From NCBI RefSeq assembly GCF_044647545.1, contig NZ_CP172818.1: DNA of 64,000 nucleotides, one strand, 5' to 3'. The position numbers and the translations under genes were made by a program. Of the stretch, positions 2,862 through 23,317 are shown piece by piece. Each line of letters starts with the position of its first letter. The first letter of the stretch is position 1. Source of the stretch: Escherichia coli (lineage in GTDB: Bacteria > Pseudomonadota > Gammaproteobacteria > Enterobacterales > Enterobacteriaceae). Below the pieces are notes generated by a model. That model had not been told where the DNA came from, ran no database searches, and saw only the letters and a list, made by a program, of their open reading frames with translations.

Positions 2862-3088
2862 AGGATGCTCCTGTTATGGTCGTTATGTCGGATAACCTCT
2901 TCCAACAGTGCATTTGCAGGTGAATATAAGGCAATGGTTTAAGATTTCAGCCAGGCAAAGATACCCAGCAGAGAATCTTGAAATAATTAACAAACAAAGG
3001 AGTTACAGTTAGAAATTGTAGGAGAGATCTCGTTTTTCGCGACAATCTGGCGTTTTTCTTGCTAATTCCAGGATTAATCCGTTCATAG

Positions 3089-3106
3089 TGTAAAACCCCG
3101 TTTACA
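3089..3106 (+). promoter_or_regulatory. TyrR box in aroG promoter region
   Basis: TGTAAA-N6-TTTACA palindrome (tgtaaaaccccgtttaca) about 70 nt upstream of aroG ATG. Confidence 0.65.
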
Positions 3107-3176
3107 CATTCTGACGGAAGATATAGATTGGAAGTATTGCATTCACTAAGATAAGTATGGCAACACTGGAACAGAC

Positions 3177-4229
3177 ATGAATTATCAGAACGACGATTTA
3201 CGCATCAAAGAAATCAAAGAGTTACTTCCTCCTGTCGCATTGCTGGAAAAATTCCCCGCTACTGAAAATGCCGCGAATACGGTCGCCCATGCCCGAAAAG
3301 CGATCCATAAGATCCTGAAAGGTAATGATGATCGCCTGTTGGTGGTGATTGGCCCATGCTCAATTCATGATCCTGTCGCAGCAAAAGAGTATGCCACTCG
3401 CTTGCTGGCGCTGCGTGAAGAGCTGAAAGATGAGCTGGAAATCGTAATGCGCGTCTATTTTGAAAAGCCGCGTACAACGGTGGGCTGGAAAGGGCTGATT
3501 AACGATCCGCATATGGATAACAGCTTCCAGATCAACGACGGTCTGCGTATTGCCCGCAAATTGCTGCTCGATATTAACGACAGCGGTCTGCCAGCGGCGG
3601 GTGAATTCCTGGATATGATCACCCCACAATATCTCGCTGACCTGATGAGCTGGGGCGCAATTGGCGCACGTACTACGGAATCGCAGGTGCACCGCGAACT
3701 GGCGTCTGGTCTTTCTTGCCCGGTAGGCTTCAAAAATGGCACTGATGGTACGATTAAAGTGGCTATCGATGCTATTAATGCCGCCGGTGCGCCGCACTGC
3801 TTCCTGTCCGTAACGAAATGGGGGCATTCGGCGATTGTGAATACCAGCGGTAACGGCGATTGCCATATCATTCTGCGCGGCGGTAAAGAGCCTAACTACA
3901 GCGCGAAGCACGTTGCTGAAGTGAAAGACGGGCTGAACAAAGCAGGTCTGCCAGCGCAGGTGATGATCGATTTCAGCCACGCCAACTCGTCCAAACAATT
4001 CAAAAAGCAGATGGATGTTTGTGCTGACGTTTGCCAGCAGATTGCCGGTGGCGAAAAGGCTATTATTGGCGTGATGGTGGAAAGCCATCTGGTGGAAGGC
4101 AATCAGAGCCTCGAGAGTGGGGAACCGCTGGCCTATGGCAAGAGCATCACCGATGCCTGCATTGGCTGGGATGATACCGATGCTCTGTTACGTCAACTGG
4201 CGAATGCAGTAAAAGCGCGTCGCGGGTAA
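3177..4229 (+). CDS. aroG: DAHP synthase, Phe-sensitive
   Basis: 350-aa ORF MNYQNDDLRIKEIKELLPP...; matches AroG; TyrR box in the upstream region. Confidence 0.96.
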   Translation: MNYQNDDLRIKEIKELLPPVALLEKFPATENAANTVAHARKAIHKILKGNDDRLLVVIGPCSIHDPVAAKEYATRLLALREELKDELEIVMRVYFEKPRTTVGWKGLINDPHMDNSFQINDGLRIARKLLLDINDSGLPAAGEFLDMITPQYLADLMSWGAIGARTTESQVHRELASGLSCPVGFKNGTDGTIKVAIDAINAAGAPHCFLSVTKWGHSAIVNTSGNGDCHIILRGGKEPNYSAKHVAEVKDGLNKAGLPAQVMIDFSHANSSKQFKKQMDVCADVCQQIAGGEKAIIGVMVESHLVEGNQSLESGEPLAYGKSITDACIGWDDTDALLRQLANAVKARRG

Positions 4230-17174: not shown

Positions 17175-18128
17175 TTAACCTATCTCCTGTAACGCATGTC
17201 TCTGGCGTTCGACGATATTGGTCCACAAATTGTCTTTATCGTCAGTCCACAAATTAATCAGCAAGGCAAAAAAGCGTTCAGCTGCCGGAGAAAGCACGGC
17301 ATCTTTGCGGCGAATAATCCCCAATGTCCGACGTATAACGGGTTCCACCAGTGGGATACCAATAATCGAAGAATAGGGCGCATGGGGCATTGCCAGACCA
17401 GGAAGCGCCGAAATCCCCAGTCCTGCCTCCACCAGTCCTAATGACGTCGAAAGATGACGCACTTCGTAAAACCAGTCCAGCTTCCAGGGCTTGTCGGCTA
17501 GCTGTTGTTCTATCAACAGTCGGTTGCCGCTGGAGGAGCGTACGCCAATCATTTTGTAACCCACTAACTCCTGCCATTCTACAAGCTGCTTTTTGGCCAA
17601 TGGATGGTCACGCCGACAGGCCAGCACGAACGGCTCGTTGACCAGTGGGGTAAAATCGATGGATGAATTTGTGACGTTGTTCATGTTTATGCCAAAGTCT
17701 GATTCGTTACACAGCACCGATTCCATGCAATTATTCGTGCCTTGTTCCAGAATCCGCACTTTAATATTGGGATACAGCTCATTAAATTTACCGATTGCCA
17801 GCGGTAAAAAATAAAATACTGCGGTCGGAATACACGCTAATGTCACCATACCACGATGATAAGCATTCATATCACGAATATTAAAAAGCGTTTCATCGAA
17901 TTTCTTTATTAATTCCCGCGCCTCCGGGAGCAATCTTTTTCCTGCTTTTGTTAACGTAACCTTGCGAGTTGTACGCTCAAATAGTTGGATATGTAAATCT
18001 TCCTCCATCTTTTTTATTCTTCGCGTTAATGCAGGTTGCGTAATATTGAGTAATTTAGCGGCATTGTTAAATGAACTGGACTCTGCCAGTATGACAAATG
18101 CCTTCATACTTGATAATTCATGCTTCAT
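17175..18128 (-). CDS. ybhD: LysR-type transcriptional regulator
   Basis: Start chosen at MKHELSSMKAFVILAESSSFNNAAKLLNITQPALTRRIKKME (LTTR HTH); divergent from ybhH. Confidence 0.88.
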   Translation of the reverse strand: MKHELSSMKAFVILAESSSFNNAAKLLNITQPALTRRIKKMEEDLHIQLFERTTRKVTLTKAGKRLLPEARELIKKFDETLFNIRDMNAYHRGMVTLACIPTAVFYFLPLAIGKFNELYPNIKVRILEQGTNNCMESVLCNESDFGINMNNVTNSSIDFTPLVNEPFVLACRRDHPLAKKQLVEWQELVGYKMIGVRSSSGNRLLIEQQLADKPWKLDWFYEVRHLSTSLGLVEAGLGISALPGLAMPHAPYSSIIGIPLVEPVIRRTLGIIRRKDAVLSPAAERFFALLINLWTDDKDNLWTNIVERQRHALQEIG

Positions 18129-18205
18129 TATTACTCCGGAAAATGGAAGCGTCGATTTTGGGTGGCTGGCCGTTAAAAATTTTAACTGCATTTAGCCAAC
18201 TTAAA

Positions 18206-18226
18206 TTAATGAAAAAAAGTTATTAA
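18206..18226. promoter_or_regulatory. putative LysR-type (T-N11-A) box in ybhD/ybhH divergent promoter
   Basis: TTAAT-N11-ATTAA dyad (ttaatgaaaaaaagttattaa) in the AT-rich 183-nt divergent intergenic region. Confidence 0.4.
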
Positions 18227-18311
18227 TCGTTGAGCTAAAGTCATTAGAGATGCTTTGCCCTTAATGTAACCATATCGCAATAAGTTATGTTTTTAAATTG
18301 AGGGCATTATT

Positions 18312-19364
18312 ATGAAAAAAATACCCTGCGTGATGATGCGAGGTGGAACCTCGAGGGGCGCGTTCCTGTTAGCGGAACATCTACCCGAAGATCAAACGCA
18401 GCGCGATAAAATATTGATGGCAATTATGGGTTCCGGTAACGATCTGGAAATTGACGGTATTGGCGGCGGTAATCCGCTGACCAGTAAAGTCGCCATTATT
18501 AGCCGCTCCAGCGATCCGCGTGCAGATGTCGATTATCTGTTTGCTCAAGTTATCGTCCATGAGCAACGTGTCGATACCACGCCTAACTGCGGCAATATGC
18601 TGTCTGGCGTTGGGGCATTCGCCATTGAAAATGGTTTGATTGCAGCGACTTCGCCAGTTACCCGCGTACGTATCCGCAACGTCAATACGGGTACGTTCAT
18701 CGAAGCTGATGTGCAAACGCCAAATGGTGTTGTCGAGTACGAGGGTAGCGCCAGAATTGACGGCGTACCGGGTACTGCCGCACCGGTTGCGCTCACTTTC
18801 CTGAATGCCGCCGGAACCAAAACCGGAAAAGTCTTCCCGACGGATAATCAGATTGATTATTTTGACGATGTGCCGGTGACCTGTATCGATATGGCGATGC
18901 CAGTTGTCATTATTCCTGCTGAATATCTGGGAAAAACAGGCTATGAATTACCGGCAGAGCTGGATGCCGACAAAGCATTATTAGCCCGCATTGAATCTAT
19001 CCGTCTACAAGCGGGTAAAGCAATGGGCTTAGGCGATGTCAGTAATATGGTTATCCCTAAACCTGTACTTATTTCTCCAGCGCAGAAAGGCGGGGCAATT
19101 AATGTGCGTTATTTTATGCCGCATTCTTGCCATCGCGCTTTGGCGATAACCGGTGCTATTGCTATTTCCAGTAGTTGTGCATTGGAAGGCACCGTCACCC
19201 GACAAATCGTCCCTTCTGTAGGATACGGCAATATCAATATTGAACACCCCAGTGGTGCGCTCGACGTTCATTTAAGTAATGAAGGTCAGGATGCCACGAC
19301 GTTACGCGCATCTGTTATTCGGACGACCAGAAAAATATTTTCCGGTGAAGTTTATCTTCCCTGA
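18312..19364 (+). CDS. ybhH: PrpF/2-methylaconitate isomerase-family protein
   Basis: 350-aa ORF starting MKKIPCVMMRGGTSRG, the N-terminus typical of PrpF-family isomerases; RBS upstream. Confidence 0.88.
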   Translation: MKKIPCVMMRGGTSRGAFLLAEHLPEDQTQRDKILMAIMGSGNDLEIDGIGGGNPLTSKVAIISRSSDPRADVDYLFAQVIVHEQRVDTTPNCGNMLSGVGAFAIENGLIAATSPVTRVRIRNVNTGTFIEADVQTPNGVVEYEGSARIDGVPGTAAPVALTFLNAAGTKTGKVFPTDNQIDYFDDVPVTCIDMAMPVVIIPAEYLGKTGYELPAELDADKALLARIESIRLQAGKAMGLGDVSNMVIPKPVLISPAQKGGAINVRYFMPHSCHRALAITGAIAISSSCALEGTVTRQIVPSVGYGNINIEHPSGALDVHLSNEGQDATTLRASVIRTTRKIFSGEVYLP

Positions 19365-19439: not shown

Positions 19440-20873
19440 ATGAATAAGAAATCGTTATGGAAGCTAATTCTGATATTAGCAATCCCATGTATTATTGGCT
19501 TTATGCCAGCTCCAGCAGGATTAAGCGAACTGGCGTGGGTGCTTTTTGGTATTTACCTGGCGGCCATTGTGGGGCTGGTTATCAAGCCTTTCCCGGAACC
19601 TGTCGTACTGTTAATTGCCGTCGCCGCATCGATGGTAGTGGTGGGTAACTTATCAGGTGGGGAATTTAAAACCACCGCTGTATTAAGCGGTTACTCTTCC
19701 GGTACCACCTGGCTGGTGTTTTCTGCGTTTACTTTAAGCGCCGCGTTTGTAACCACAGGCTTAGGTAAACGTATTGCCTATCTGCTGATTGGTAAAATTG
19801 GTAGCACTACCCTGGGTCTGGGTTACGTTACGGTATTTCTCGATCTGGTACTGGCTCCGGCAACACCGTCTAACACCGCGCGTGCGGGCGGCATCGTGTT
19901 ACCGATCATCAACAGCGTGGCAGTGGCTTTGGGATCAGAACCGGAAAAAAGTCCGCGTCGTGTTGGACATTACCTGATGATGTCCATTTACATGGTCACC
20001 AAAACCACCAGCTATATGTTCTTTACCGCAATGGCGGGGAACATTCTGGCGCTGAAAATGATCAACGACATTCTGCACCTGCAAATTAGCTGGGGTGGAT
20101 GGGCGCTAGCCGCCGGATTGCCTGGCATCATTATGCTGCTGGTCACCCCGCTGGTGATTTACACCATGTATCCGCCAGAAATTAAGAAGGTGGATAACAA
20201 AACCATCGCCAAAGCGGGCCTTGCCGAACTGGGACCGATGAAAATCCGCGAAAAAATGCTGCTCGGTGTCTTCGTGCTGGCGCTGCTGGGCTGGATTTTC
20301 AGTAAGTCACTGGGGGTTGATGAATCCACCGTGGCAATCGTTGTTATGGCGACTATGCTGCTGCTGGGTATCGTTACCTGGGAAGACGTGGTTAAAAATA
20401 AAGGCGGCTGGAATACCTTAATCTGGTACGGCGGTATTATCGGCTTAAGCTCCTTATTATCGAAAGTTAAATTCTTCGAATGGTTAGCTGAAGTCTTTAA
20501 AAATAACCTGGCATTTGATGGTCACGGTAACGTTGCTTTCTTCGTTATTATTTTCCTCAGCATCATCGTGCGTTATTTCTTCGCTTCCGGTAGTGCCTAT
20601 ATCGTTGCCATGTTACCGGTATTTGCCATGCTGGCGAACGTCTCCGGCGCGCCGTTAATGTTAACCGCGCTGGCACTGTTGTTCTCTAACTCCTATGGCG
20701 GCATGGTTACTCACTATGGCGGCGCGGCAGGTCCGGTCATCTTTGGCGTGGGTTACAACGATATTAAATCCTGGTGGTTGGTCGGTGCGGTACTGACGAT
20801 ATTAACCTTCCTGGTGCATATCACCCTCGGCGTGTGGTGGTGGAATATGCTGATCGGCTGGAACATGCTGTAA
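19440..20873 (+). CDS. ybhI: DASS-family (divalent anion:Na+ symporter-like) transporter
   Basis: 477-aa polytopic membrane ORF directly downstream of ybhH on the same strand. Confidence 0.9.
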   Translation: MNKKSLWKLILILAIPCIIGFMPAPAGLSELAWVLFGIYLAAIVGLVIKPFPEPVVLLIAVAASMVVVGNLSGGEFKTTAVLSGYSSGTTWLVFSAFTLSAAFVTTGLGKRIAYLLIGKIGSTTLGLGYVTVFLDLVLAPATPSNTARAGGIVLPIINSVAVALGSEPEKSPRRVGHYLMMSIYMVTKTTSYMFFTAMAGNILALKMINDILHLQISWGGWALAAGLPGIIMLLVTPLVIYTMYPPEIKKVDNKTIAKAGLAELGPMKIREKMLLGVFVLALLGWIFSKSLGVDESTVAIVVMATMLLLGIVTWEDVVKNKGGWNTLIWYGGIIGLSSLLSKVKFFEWLAEVFKNNLAFDGHGNVAFFVIIFLSIIVRYFFASGSAYIVAMLPVFAMLANVSGAPLMLTALALLFSNSYGGMVTHYGGAAGPVIFGVGYNDIKSWWLVGAVLTILTFLVHITLGVWWWNMLIGWNML

Positions 20874-20998: not shown

Positions 20999-21055
20999 AT
21001 ATCCATTTATTATCTTTCTGCGCACTTCACGGTGCGCAGATATCTGGAGCATTTG

Positions 21056-23317
21056 ATGATCAAGTTATCTGAAAAAGGCGTGTTTCTCGCCAGTAATAAC
21101 GAAATAATTGCCGAAGAATATTTCACCGGCGAAATTAAAAAAGAAGAAGCCAAAAAAGGCACTATTGCCTGGTCTATTCTCTCTTCTCATAATACGTCCG
21201 GAAATATGGATAAACTTAAAATTAAGTTTGATTCATTAGCCTCTCACGATATTACCTTTGTTGGTATTGTACAGACCGCTAAAGCGTCCGGTATGGAACG
21301 TTTCCCGCTGCCGTATGTGCTGACCAACTGCCATAACTCACTCTGCGCCGTCGGCGGCACCATTAACGGTGATGACCATGTTTTTGGTTTATCGGCGGCC
21401 CAGCGTTATGGCGGTATTTTTGTGCCACCGCATATTGCGGTCATCCATCAATATATGCGTGAAATGATGGCAGGCGGCGGCAAAATGATCCTCGGGTCAG
21501 ACAGCCATACCCGTTACGGTGCGTTAGGGACAATGGCGGTTGGCGAGGGCGGCGGCGAGCTGGTAAAACAACTGCTTAATGACACCTGGGATATCGACTA
21601 TCCGGGCGTGGTTGCGGTGCATCTGACCGGAAAACCAGCGCTGTATGTGGGGCCACAGGATGTGGCGCTGGCTATCATCGGTGCCGTGTTCAAAAACGGT
21701 TACGTCAAAAACAAAGTGATGGAGTTCGTAGGTCCCGGTGTTGCAGCGCTCTCTACCGATTTCCGTAACAGCGTTGACGTGATGACCACTGAAACGACCT
21801 GTTTAAGTTCTGTCTGGCAAACCGATGAAGAAGTCCATAACTGGCTGACGCTGCACGGTCGCGGCCAGGATTACTGCCAACTTAACCCTCAACCAATGGC
21901 GTACTACGATGGCTGCATCAGCGTTGATTTAAGCGCCATCAAACCAATGATTGCGCTGCCATTCCACCCGAGCAACGTGTATGAAATCGACACGCTGAAC
22001 CAGAACCTGACCGACATTCTGCGTGAGATTGAAATTGAGTCCGAACGTGTGGCGCACGGTAAAGCCAGACTCTCGCTGCTGGATAAAGTGGAAAATGGTC
22101 GCCTGAAAGTGCAGCAGGGGATTATCGCGGGCTGTTCTGGCGGTAACTATGAAAACGTCATCGCGGCGGCGAATGCGCTGCGCGGTCAATCCTGTGGCAA
22201 TGACACCTTCTCGTTAGCGGTTTACCCGTCATCACAGCCCGTGTTTATGGATCTCGCCAAAAAAGGTGTGGTAGCAGATTTGATTGGCGCAGGCGCAATC
22301 ATCAGAACCGCGTTCTGCGGCCCATGCTTTGGCGCGGGCGATACACCAATCAATAACGGTTTGAGTATTCGCCACACCACGCGTAACTTCCCGAACCGCG
22401 AAGGCTCTAAGCCAGCTAATGGTCAGATGTCAGCGGTGGCGTTGATGGACGCTCGTTCTATCGCTGCGACTGCGGCAAACGGTGGCTATTTAACCTCTGC
22501 CAGCGAACTCGATTGCTGGGACAACGTGCCGGAGTACGCCTTCGATGTAACGCCGTATAAAAACCGTGTTTATCAGGGCTTTGTGAAAGGGGCGACCCAG
22601 CAACCGCTGATTTACGGACCGAACATTAAAGACTGGCCGGAATTGGGTGCGCTGACTGACAATATCGTCCTCAAAGTGTGCTCGAAGATCCTCGACGAAG
22701 TGACCACCACCGACGAACTGATTCCTTCCGGTGAAACCTCTTCTTATCGTTCAAATCCGATTGGTCTGGCGGAGTTTACCCTGTCACGCCGCGATCCAGG
22801 TTATGTTGGTAGAAGTAAAGCGACTGCTGAGCTGGAAAATCAGCGTCTGGCGGGAAATGTCAGCGAGCTGACAGAGGTGTTTGCGCGCATTAAGCAGATT
22901 GCTGGTCAGGAGCATATTGATCCGCTGCAAACTGAAATTGGCAGCATGGTCTATGCGGTGAAACCAGGCGATGGTTCTGCGCGTGAGCAGGCGGCGAGCT
23001 GTCAGCGTGTGATTGGCGGTCTGGCGAATATTGCCGAGGAGTACGCGACTAAACGCTACCGTTCTAACGTCATCAACTGGGGGATGTTACCGCTGCAGAT
23101 GGCGGAAGCACCGAACTTTGACGTAGGTGATTACATTTACATCCCTGGCATTAAAGCAGCGCTGGATAATCCGGGTACGACGTTTAAAGGTTATGTGATC
23201 CATGAAGATGCGCCGGTAACAGAGATTACGCTCTATATGGAAAGTCTGACTGCTGAAGAGCGCGAGATTATCAAGGCGGGTAGTTTGATTAACTTCAATA
23301 AAAACCGTCAGATGTAA
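21056..23317 (+). CDS. ybhJ: aconitase-family protein
   Basis: ORF contains aconitase-type motifs [23 protein letters not shown] and GDGSAREQ; start taken at MIKLSEKG (alternative ATG at 21032). Confidence 0.88.

Follow-up and report, generated by a model that had tools for sequence, protein, structure and literature searches.

A conserved dyad between ybhD and ybhH of Escherichia coli, part of a probable composite LysR-type operator for the regulator YbhD

The divergent genes ybhD and ybhH of Escherichia coli are separated by an intergenic region that contains the palindromic element ATTAAT-N11-ATTAAT, which is most likely the high-affinity recognition site of a composite LysR-type operator through which YbhD controls ybhH. 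YbhD belongs to those LysR-family regulators of E. coli K-12 for which neither a ligand nor a binding site has been described. For this regulator, the present analysis delimits a putative operator (positions 18205-18247), complete with a partner box and a predicted promoter. All positions refer to the window, i.e. the whole stretch of 64,000 nucleotides that was analyzed.

Results

Genes flanking the intergenic region

The segment 18100-18340 of the window was matched in 5,346 of the 5,426 complete E. coli genomes, and the genes on its two sides carry the RefSeq labels ybhD and ybhH. Gene coordinates (Table 1) were obtained by alignment with E. coli JM109, using the RefSeq annotation of near-identical genomes, and from family scans. 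The start codon of ybhD is the ATG at 18128, which is preceded by GGAG, and the longer open reading frame on the ybhD side that reaches 18191 is mechanical only. YbhD is a LysR-type regulator of about 300 amino acids that combines an N-terminal winged helix-turn-helix domain (HTH_1, PF00126; 2.8e-21, residues 6-64) with a C-terminal substrate-binding domain (LysR_substrate, PF03466; 2.5e-46, residues 91-290); its best solved relatives are NtcB, CbbR, OxyR and BenM. The structure of YbhH has been solved (6OTV), and the nearest characterized relative of this protein is an oxalomesaconate isomerase (6P3H).

The 75-nt gap between ybhH and ybhI contains no terminator-like site on the plus strand, and the two genes are probably co-transcribed. 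The membership of ybhJ in the ybhH transcript is uncertain: this gene is separated from ybhI by 182 nt with a repeat element inside and is missing from the loci of the Klebsiella oxytoca group. Within the ybhI-ybhJ spacer, the segment 20880-21005 holds CGCTCACCCCAGTCACTTACTT followed by ATGTAAGCTCCTGGGGATTCAC, which we take to be the targets of the ERIC2 and ERIC1R PCR primers; this spacer would thus contain an enterobacterial repetitive intergenic consensus (ERIC) element. Sequences of the form ATA-N9-TAT are present at 19444-19458, at the start of ybhI, and at 20999-21013, 43 nt upstream of ybhJ.

Table 1. Genes and predicted regulatory elements of the ybhD-ybhH locus and the related operator linked to tcuA
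Feature	Position	Strand	Description and basis
ybhD	17175-18128	-	LysR-family regulator, 317 aa; ORF list, translation, RefSeq annotation (JM109), Pfam
Candidate -10 hexamer of ybhD	18179-18184	-	TAAAAT, 20 nt from the dyad; predicted
Recognition site ATTAAT-N11-ATTAAT	18205-18227		Center 18216, T-N11-A pair formed by T18210 and A18222; sequence, conservation, shuffles, matrix
Linker	18228-18241	+	Fixed at 14 nt in all 75 operator loci, T-rich in most genera
CATTAG box	18242-18247	+	Putative promoter-proximal activation-type sub-site at the predicted -35 region (approximately -38 to -33)
Predicted extended -10 of ybhH promoter	18265-18273	+	TG-T-AACCAT, fits TGnNAnnnT
Predicted transcription start of ybhH	18279-18281	+	About 32 nt upstream of the start codon; deduced from the predicted -10 element
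ybhH	18312-19364	+	PrpF-family isomerase, regulated gene; RefSeq annotation and family scans
ybhI	19440-20873	+	DASS-family anion/carboxylate transporter; family scans
ybhJ	21056-23317	+	Aconitase-family hydratase; RefSeq annotation and family scans
tcuA-linked operator	L083 8337-8379; L165 11693-11735; L173 11760-11802		ATTAATGCGCATAACGCATTAAT-N14-CATTAG

The intergenic dyad and its expectation by chance

The ybhD-ybhH spacer (18129-18311) is 183 bp long and has a G+C content of 33% compared to 52% for the window. The preliminary description had pointed to an AT-rich region of 183 nt with a TTAAT-N11-ATTAA motif at 18206-18226. The motif is indeed present at exactly these coordinates (TTAATGAAAAAAAGTTATTAA); the coordinate 18192, from which the same description had the promoter region begin, simply marks the end of the longer mechanical reading frame. 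The symmetry extends one base farther on each side, resulting in ATTAAT-N11-ATTAAT at 18205-18227. The TTAAT-N11-ATTAA motif is expected 0.04 times in the whole window and was present in 4 of 100 window shuffles, and the 6+6 version of the dyad was found in none of the 100. However, because the spacer is AT-rich, the whole-window expectation flatters the dyad. When the spacer alone was shuffled 5,000 times, the exact pattern was recovered in 0.3% of the shuffles, any perfect 6+6 dyad at N11 in 7.7% and any perfect 5+5 dyad in 24%. Given the latter frequency, the evidence from a single sequence is weak: on this sequence alone, the dyad is real and weakly significant, and its weight comes from conservation.

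Several other features of the spacer were noticed. Inside the dyad, in the non-conserved 11-nt segment, the window has A at position 18218, whereas K-12 and other Escherichia species have T (GAAAAAAAGTT versus GAAAAAATGTT). A second palindrome, GCCGTTAAAA/TTTTAACTGC, is located at 18169-18189 in the ybhD-proximal half of the spacer, over the candidate -10 hexamer of ybhD, and reads GTTAAAC-A-GTTTAAC in other Escherichia species, which is a compensatory change. This palindrome could be a site for another factor or a hairpin in the ybhD leader. A scan of 18050-18400 against Rfam yielded zero matches to RNA families, and the possibility of a riboswitch or small RNA in this segment was dropped for this reason.

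Conservation of the probable composite operator in orthologous loci

An alignment of YbhD with homologues of 53-87% identity was used to fetch 80 loci, one from the representative genome of each species, which cover Escherichia, Citrobacter, Edwardsiella, Intestinirhabdus, Klebsiella, Dickeya, Pantoea, Providencia, Kosakonia, Enterobacter, Celerinatantimonas and many species of Pseudomonas. A YbhH homologue (56-100% identity) is divergently adjacent to the regulator gene in 78 of the 80 loci, the exceptions being L017, with gene fragments only, and L025, which has no ybhH. The divergent arrangement of regulator and target that is expected for a LysR operator is thus found in the window and in these 78 loci. 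One and the same layout is shared by 75 of the 80 spacers: ATTAAT-N11-ATTAAT is followed, after 14 nt, by CATT(A/G/T)G and, 17 nt past this box, by TGnNAnnnT; one of these 75 loci (L012) has a 10-nt spacer within an A-run. The dyad is located 77-95 nt from the start codon of ybhH, and its distance to the start codon of ybhD varies from 38 to 99 nt.

When the set was made non-redundant at 85% identity, 43 spacers remained. The T6 and A18 positions, which form the T-N11-A pair, are invariant in all 43, as are A21, A39 and T41, and the columns upstream of the dyad are nearly information-free; in other words, the T-N11-A dyad characteristic of a LysR operator is conserved among the orthologous promoters. 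Within the CATTAG box, columns C38, A39, T40, T41 and G43 are conserved at 91-100%, and T32, T34 and T35 of the linker show moderate conservation. The 14-nt linker is a possible upstream activation sub-site. Convincing symmetry for a second dyad around CATTAG was not found; only T32 and A44 fit the T-N11-A spacing, and such a dyad formed by these two positions is a possibility.

The register of the operator was chosen by the motif itself, and therefore three controls were included, namely an unanchored alignment, shuffles and a matrix from distant clades. The unanchored MAFFT alignment, which spans 19 genera, is invariant only in the two half-sites, in ATTAG and at the T, A and T of the predicted -10 element, the G of which is nearly invariant. 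The mean best-match mismatch is 1.9 for the real spacers versus 6.4 for the shuffles. Finally, a 44-nt matrix derived only from clades in which YbhD is less than 60% identical to the E. coli protein has its top match in the 64-kb window at 18205(+), with 17.1 bits compared to 4.0 for the runner-up. Across 693 kb of fetched loci, 80 of the 88 matches above 12 bits to this matrix fall in the ybhD-ybhH spacer in the orientation of ybhH, and the remaining eight are mostly on the opposite strand of the same spacer. A 23-nt matrix of the dyad alone gives a score on par with that of the true dyad to GTTAATGCAGGTTGCGTAATATT (18025-18047), which encodes the LNITQPALT segment of the ybhD helix-turn-helix; this match was rejected as coding-driven and unsupported by the 44-nt matrix.

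The spacers of the Klebsiella oxytoca group (L018-L021; Klebsiella grimontii, K. oxytoca, K. michiganensis and K. indica) are 279 bp long and lack the canonical operator. They contain the variant ATTAAG-N11-CTTAAA (N10 in L021), about 74 nt from ybhH, in which the symmetric change yields G-N11-C. The recognition helix of YbhD in these loci has TKK, not TRR, and this paired change of operator and helix in a single lineage is suggestive. In K. indica, the YbhH match is only partial (residues 1-101). The motif is also absent from L025, where the YbhD homologue has no adjoining ybhH.

Some individual loci show further peculiarities. In Citrobacter koseri (L017), ybhH and ybhI are present only as fragments and the operator is retained. 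In E. coli E69 (L005, about 2917-3817), ybhH may carry an insertion, as YbhH residues 42-350 map approximately 0.8 kb too far from the spacer. Most of the Pseudomonas spacers (e.g. L048 and L061) contain the palindrome ATCAAT-N7-ATTGAT downstream of the predicted -10 element, about 15 nt before the start of the ybhH homologue; this palindrome, which is missing in enterobacteria, may be the site of a second regulator.

Predicted promoters of ybhH and ybhD

At the position 17 nt past CATTAG, TG is found in 36 of the 43 non-redundant spacers, and the hexamer that follows has A as its second base in 38 and T as its sixth base in 38, a pattern that fits an extended -10 element (Table 1). A scan of 18000-18450 for -35-dependent consensus sigma-70 promoters gave no match on the plus strand of the spacer, because the scan needs a match to the -35 element, which the predicted extended -10 promoter lacks. 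With transcription predicted to start at about 18280, the dyad would be centered at about -64, and CATTAG would cover about -38 to -33. In the textbook LysR arrangement, the recognition site is located around -65 and a second, activation site overlaps the -35 region of the target promoter.

On the opposite strand, Escherichia, Citrobacter, Edwardsiella and Intestinirhabdus share a TAnnnT in register with the candidate -10 hexamer of ybhD, as seen in the unanchored alignment and the raw spacers. Transcription of ybhD is predicted to begin near 18172 on the minus strand. The other enterobacterial clade has TAnnnT 11 nt from the dyad, along with a TTTACA- or TTTGCA-like -35 element within the dyad spacer. 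The -35 region of ybhD would accordingly lie on or next to the left half-site and appears to overlap the recognition site in both enterobacterial clades. An overlap of this kind is the usual basis of autorepression by LysR-type regulators, and YbhD would be autoregulated in this way.

A related operator upstream of tcuA

A search of metagenome contigs for the exact 18-base composite pattern returned at least 120 stretches. Among the contigs listed, 96 of the 99 with less than 46% G+C have no related gene nearby, i.e. the exact composite pattern is non-specific in AT-rich DNA, whereas 19 of the 21 contigs listed with 46% G+C or more encode a YbhD-like regulator next to the pattern. Three of these 19, L083, L165 and L173, the last two of which are near-identical, are not ybhD-ybhH loci, and the operator is located in them between a LysR gene and tcuA. 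The identification of the latter gene as tricarballylate dehydrogenase comes from an NCBIfam equivalog (664 bits versus a cut-off of 369), and the reading frame with cysteine-rich motifs that follows tcuA can be read as a putative TcuB. The regulator encoded in these loci is 35% identical to YbhD and has the recognition helix SQSAITRRIQK; the spacer comprises only 81 nt, and the start codon of the regulator is located inside the dyad. The tcuA promoters contain TAAAGT or TATAGT in exactly the register predicted for the -10 element of ybhH and thus provide independent support for the prediction of the ybhH promoter.

Evidence for YbhD as the probable cognate regulator

In the clades that retain the motif, the recognition helix of YbhD, (T/S)QPAL(T/S)RRIKK, has hardly changed. 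RNA-seq of a ybhD deletion strain in M9 plus threonine has shown ybhH to be strongly up, and the authors of that study, which gives no YbhD motif, call the genes de-repressed (PMC9068703). This response supports the proposal of the preliminary description that the site is placed for control of ybhH by YbhD. The same description had taken the element for a LysR-type recognition site and had suggested a comparison of orthologous spacers; in this comparison, the dyad turned out to be the most conserved spacer element, being retained in 75 of the 80 loci over the range from Escherichia to Pseudomonas, and the invariance of the T-N11-A pair (43/43), the fixed distance to the second box and the extended -10 element and the predicted location near -64 all agree with such a site, to which YbhD would bind.

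No published YbhD binding site, EMSA or footprint was found in the literature searched, and the effector of YbhD is given as unknown in a 2024 review (PMC11495319). In the only ChIP-exo data set for YbhD, obtained with YbhD-8myc in glucose M9, the ybhD-ybhH spacer has no peak; the one peak reported is weak (signal/noise 3.57) and lies within yihP (PMC8464067 supplement). The sequence of the yihP peak contains no ATTAAT dyad and is for this reason uninformative as an independent source of the motif. The miss at the spacer might be due to low expression, to the C-terminal tag or to the growth condition, and still counts as negative evidence. Furthermore, in the 80 fetched loci the operator is invariably accompanied by ybhD as well as ybhH, and therefore the comparative data alone cannot prove that YbhD, over another factor, is the binder.

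Discussion

Alternative explanations of the conserved dyad

The dyad might be recognized by a regulator other than YbhD, for example Nac, an enterobacterial regulator that itself belongs to the LysR family, or CRP, but we consider this quite unlikely. EcoCyc and iModulonDB are cited for regulation of ybhH and ybhI by Nac (PMC9068703), ybhH is among the targets predicted by genomic SELEX of CRP (PMC3105977), and YbhD was not seen at the dyad in ChIP-exo (PMC8464067). However, the Nac-type consensus ATA-N9-TAT is absent from the spacer, and a search of the window for this consensus found it at chance level (6 found versus 8.9 expected); TGTGA-N6-TCACA, the sequence looked for in the case of CRP, was not seen in the dyad. 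Moreover, the element accompanies the ybhD-ybhH pair as far as Pseudomonas and Celerinatantimonas and recurs beside the second, 35%-identical LysR regulator at tcuA, which ties the motif to a LysR sub-branch with a near-identical recognition helix.

It is very unlikely that the ATTAAT hexamers and the A-rich spacer between them reflect promoter architecture, that is, a UP-element-like or bent AT tract, or -10- and -35-like hexamers of the divergent promoters. The G+C content of this region is as low as 23%, an A-tract is present in Escherichia and Citrobacter, and the candidate -35 region of ybhD overlaps the dyad; yet what is conserved is the two-fold symmetry with a spacer of exactly 11 nt, including the inner symmetric GCG/CGC in many genera, and not AT-richness itself, as the spacer sequence varies freely. 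In addition, a spacing of 11 nt is unfit for a -35/-10 pair, and separate -10 elements are located elsewhere. Finally, that the dyad is a functionless chance palindrome in AT-rich intergenic DNA is scarcely credible: perfect 5+5 dyads at N11 do arise in 24% of the spacer shuffles, and the 18-base pattern is away from any related gene in 96 of the 99 low-GC metagenomic contigs listed, but the element is invariant across deep clades with otherwise unalignable spacers, its geometry is fixed and its location near-exclusive, a related LysR gene lies beside the pattern in 19 of the 21 contigs listed with at least 46% G+C, and the 51-66% protein identity along with the otherwise divergent spacers excludes recent horizontal transfer of the whole spacer.

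A proposed model of regulation by YbhD

If the operator is bound by YbhD, as we propose, one pair of the DNA-binding domains of this regulator would occupy ATTAAT-N11-ATTAAT, about -64 from the predicted start of ybhH, and the second pair of the tetramer would reach CATTAG, at the -35 region of a promoter (TGTAACCAT) that is predicted to be weak and of the extended -10 type. Without the inducer, YbhD located on both sites would keep the ybhH promoter shut, which fits the de-repression of ybhH in the ybhD deletion. Upon binding of the inducer, which is probably a C6 tricarboxylate (for instance trans-aconitate or a related compound), the proximal pair might shift upstream onto the 14-nt linker, so that the -35 region would be freed and RNA polymerase could start. 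The same site overlaps the -35 region predicted for the divergent ybhD promoter, and by occupying it YbhD would limit its own synthesis.

Comparison with characterized systems

The ybhH operator shares several features with the LysR operators of BenM, CatM and CbnR (ATAC-N7-GTAT; sites near -65 and -35). These include a T-N11-A dyad centered about 64 nt upstream of the predicted start, a less symmetric second site over the predicted -35 region, a divergent regulator gene with a promoter that is predicted to overlap the operator, and a weak target promoter; some Enterobacter spacers (L037) even read exactly ATAC-N7-GTAT in the inner dyad. Conversely, the outer half-site of the putative ybhH operator, ATTAAT, is itself palindromic, and in E. 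coli an A-tract takes the place of the inner symmetric positions.

The loci with TcuR-like regulators and tcuA have an identical composite operator and a -10 hexamer in the same register. They differ in that the target is tcuA/tcuB instead of a PrpF isomerase gene and in the organization of the 81-nt spacer, with the regulator start codon in the dyad. Lewis et al. (2009, Res Microbiol 160:179) are said to have described tricarballylate as a co-inducer, as well as footprints, for Salmonella TcuR.

A functional parallel is provided by Bacillus velezensis FZB42, in which the LysR regulator TarR is encoded divergently, across 173 bp, from tarA, the gene for an aconitate isomerase of the PrpF superfamily, which is followed by the transporter gene tarB (PMC11495376). 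TarR is a pure activator induced by trans-aconitate, and the Ptar promoter region shows two DNase I footprints that contain three 6-bp AT-only palindromes (TTATAA), all of which are needed for binding (PMC11495376). The ybhD-ybhH locus resembles this system in the divergent combination of a LysR gene with a PrpF-superfamily gene and a transporter gene and in the presence of three boxes (here ATTAAT, ATTAAT and CATTAG), and differs from it in the sequence of the boxes and in that YbhH is nearer to oxalomesaconate isomerase. Among the rows examined in Table S6 of the TarR study, several enterobacteria are flagged, with homologues that share about 31-40% identity with the Tar proteins; E. coli is absent from these rows (PMC11495376).

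The probable nature of the inducer

The representative loci examined encode a PrpF-family isomerase together with a carboxylate transporter. Depending on the clade, this transporter belongs to the DASS family, to the MFS or to the sodium:dicarboxylate symporters, or is represented by an OprD porin with a weak TctC-type match behind it. An enzyme of the aconitase or the FAA-hydrolase family is sometimes added; in Escherichia and Citrobacter, this is the aconitase-family hydratase. The operator shared with tcuA and the parallel to TarR and trans-aconitate together point to a tricarboxylate inducer, and by analogy with these systems it seems reasonable to infer that the effector of YbhD is a tricarboxylate.

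A broader and distinctly more tentative proposal, which we regard as possible but rather doubtful, is that the YbhD-type and TcuR-type regulators, and possibly those of the TarR type, form a sub-branch of LysR regulators that sense C6 tricarboxylates. The three-box operator ATTAAT-N11-ATTAAT-N14-CATTAG would then be common at least to the YbhD and TcuR types, and ybhDHIJ might be a silent module for uptake and conversion of a compound that is also its inducer. Should this be the case, the substrate of ybhDHIJ would be an unsaturated tricarboxylate, e.g. trans-aconitate or an oxalomesaconate-like compound, and this compound would be the missing inducer.

Concluding remarks

Taken as a whole, the element upstream of ybhH is very probably an ordinary LysR-type operator that has been kept from Escherichia to Pseudomonas. 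The 44-nt matrix may be applied in searches for further targets of YbhD and in the annotation of orthologous clusters from Citrobacter, Enterobacter, Kosakonia and Pseudomonas. The preliminary description had presented the site as a handle for finding the inducer of the cluster; this handle is real, although indirect. The candidate inducers suggested by the tcuA operator and the TarR parallel are tricarballylate, cis- and trans-aconitate and oxalomesaconate-like tricarboxylates. The operator involves no new regulatory principle, and the main value of its delineation is that the question of the ybhDHIJ inducer becomes directly testable.
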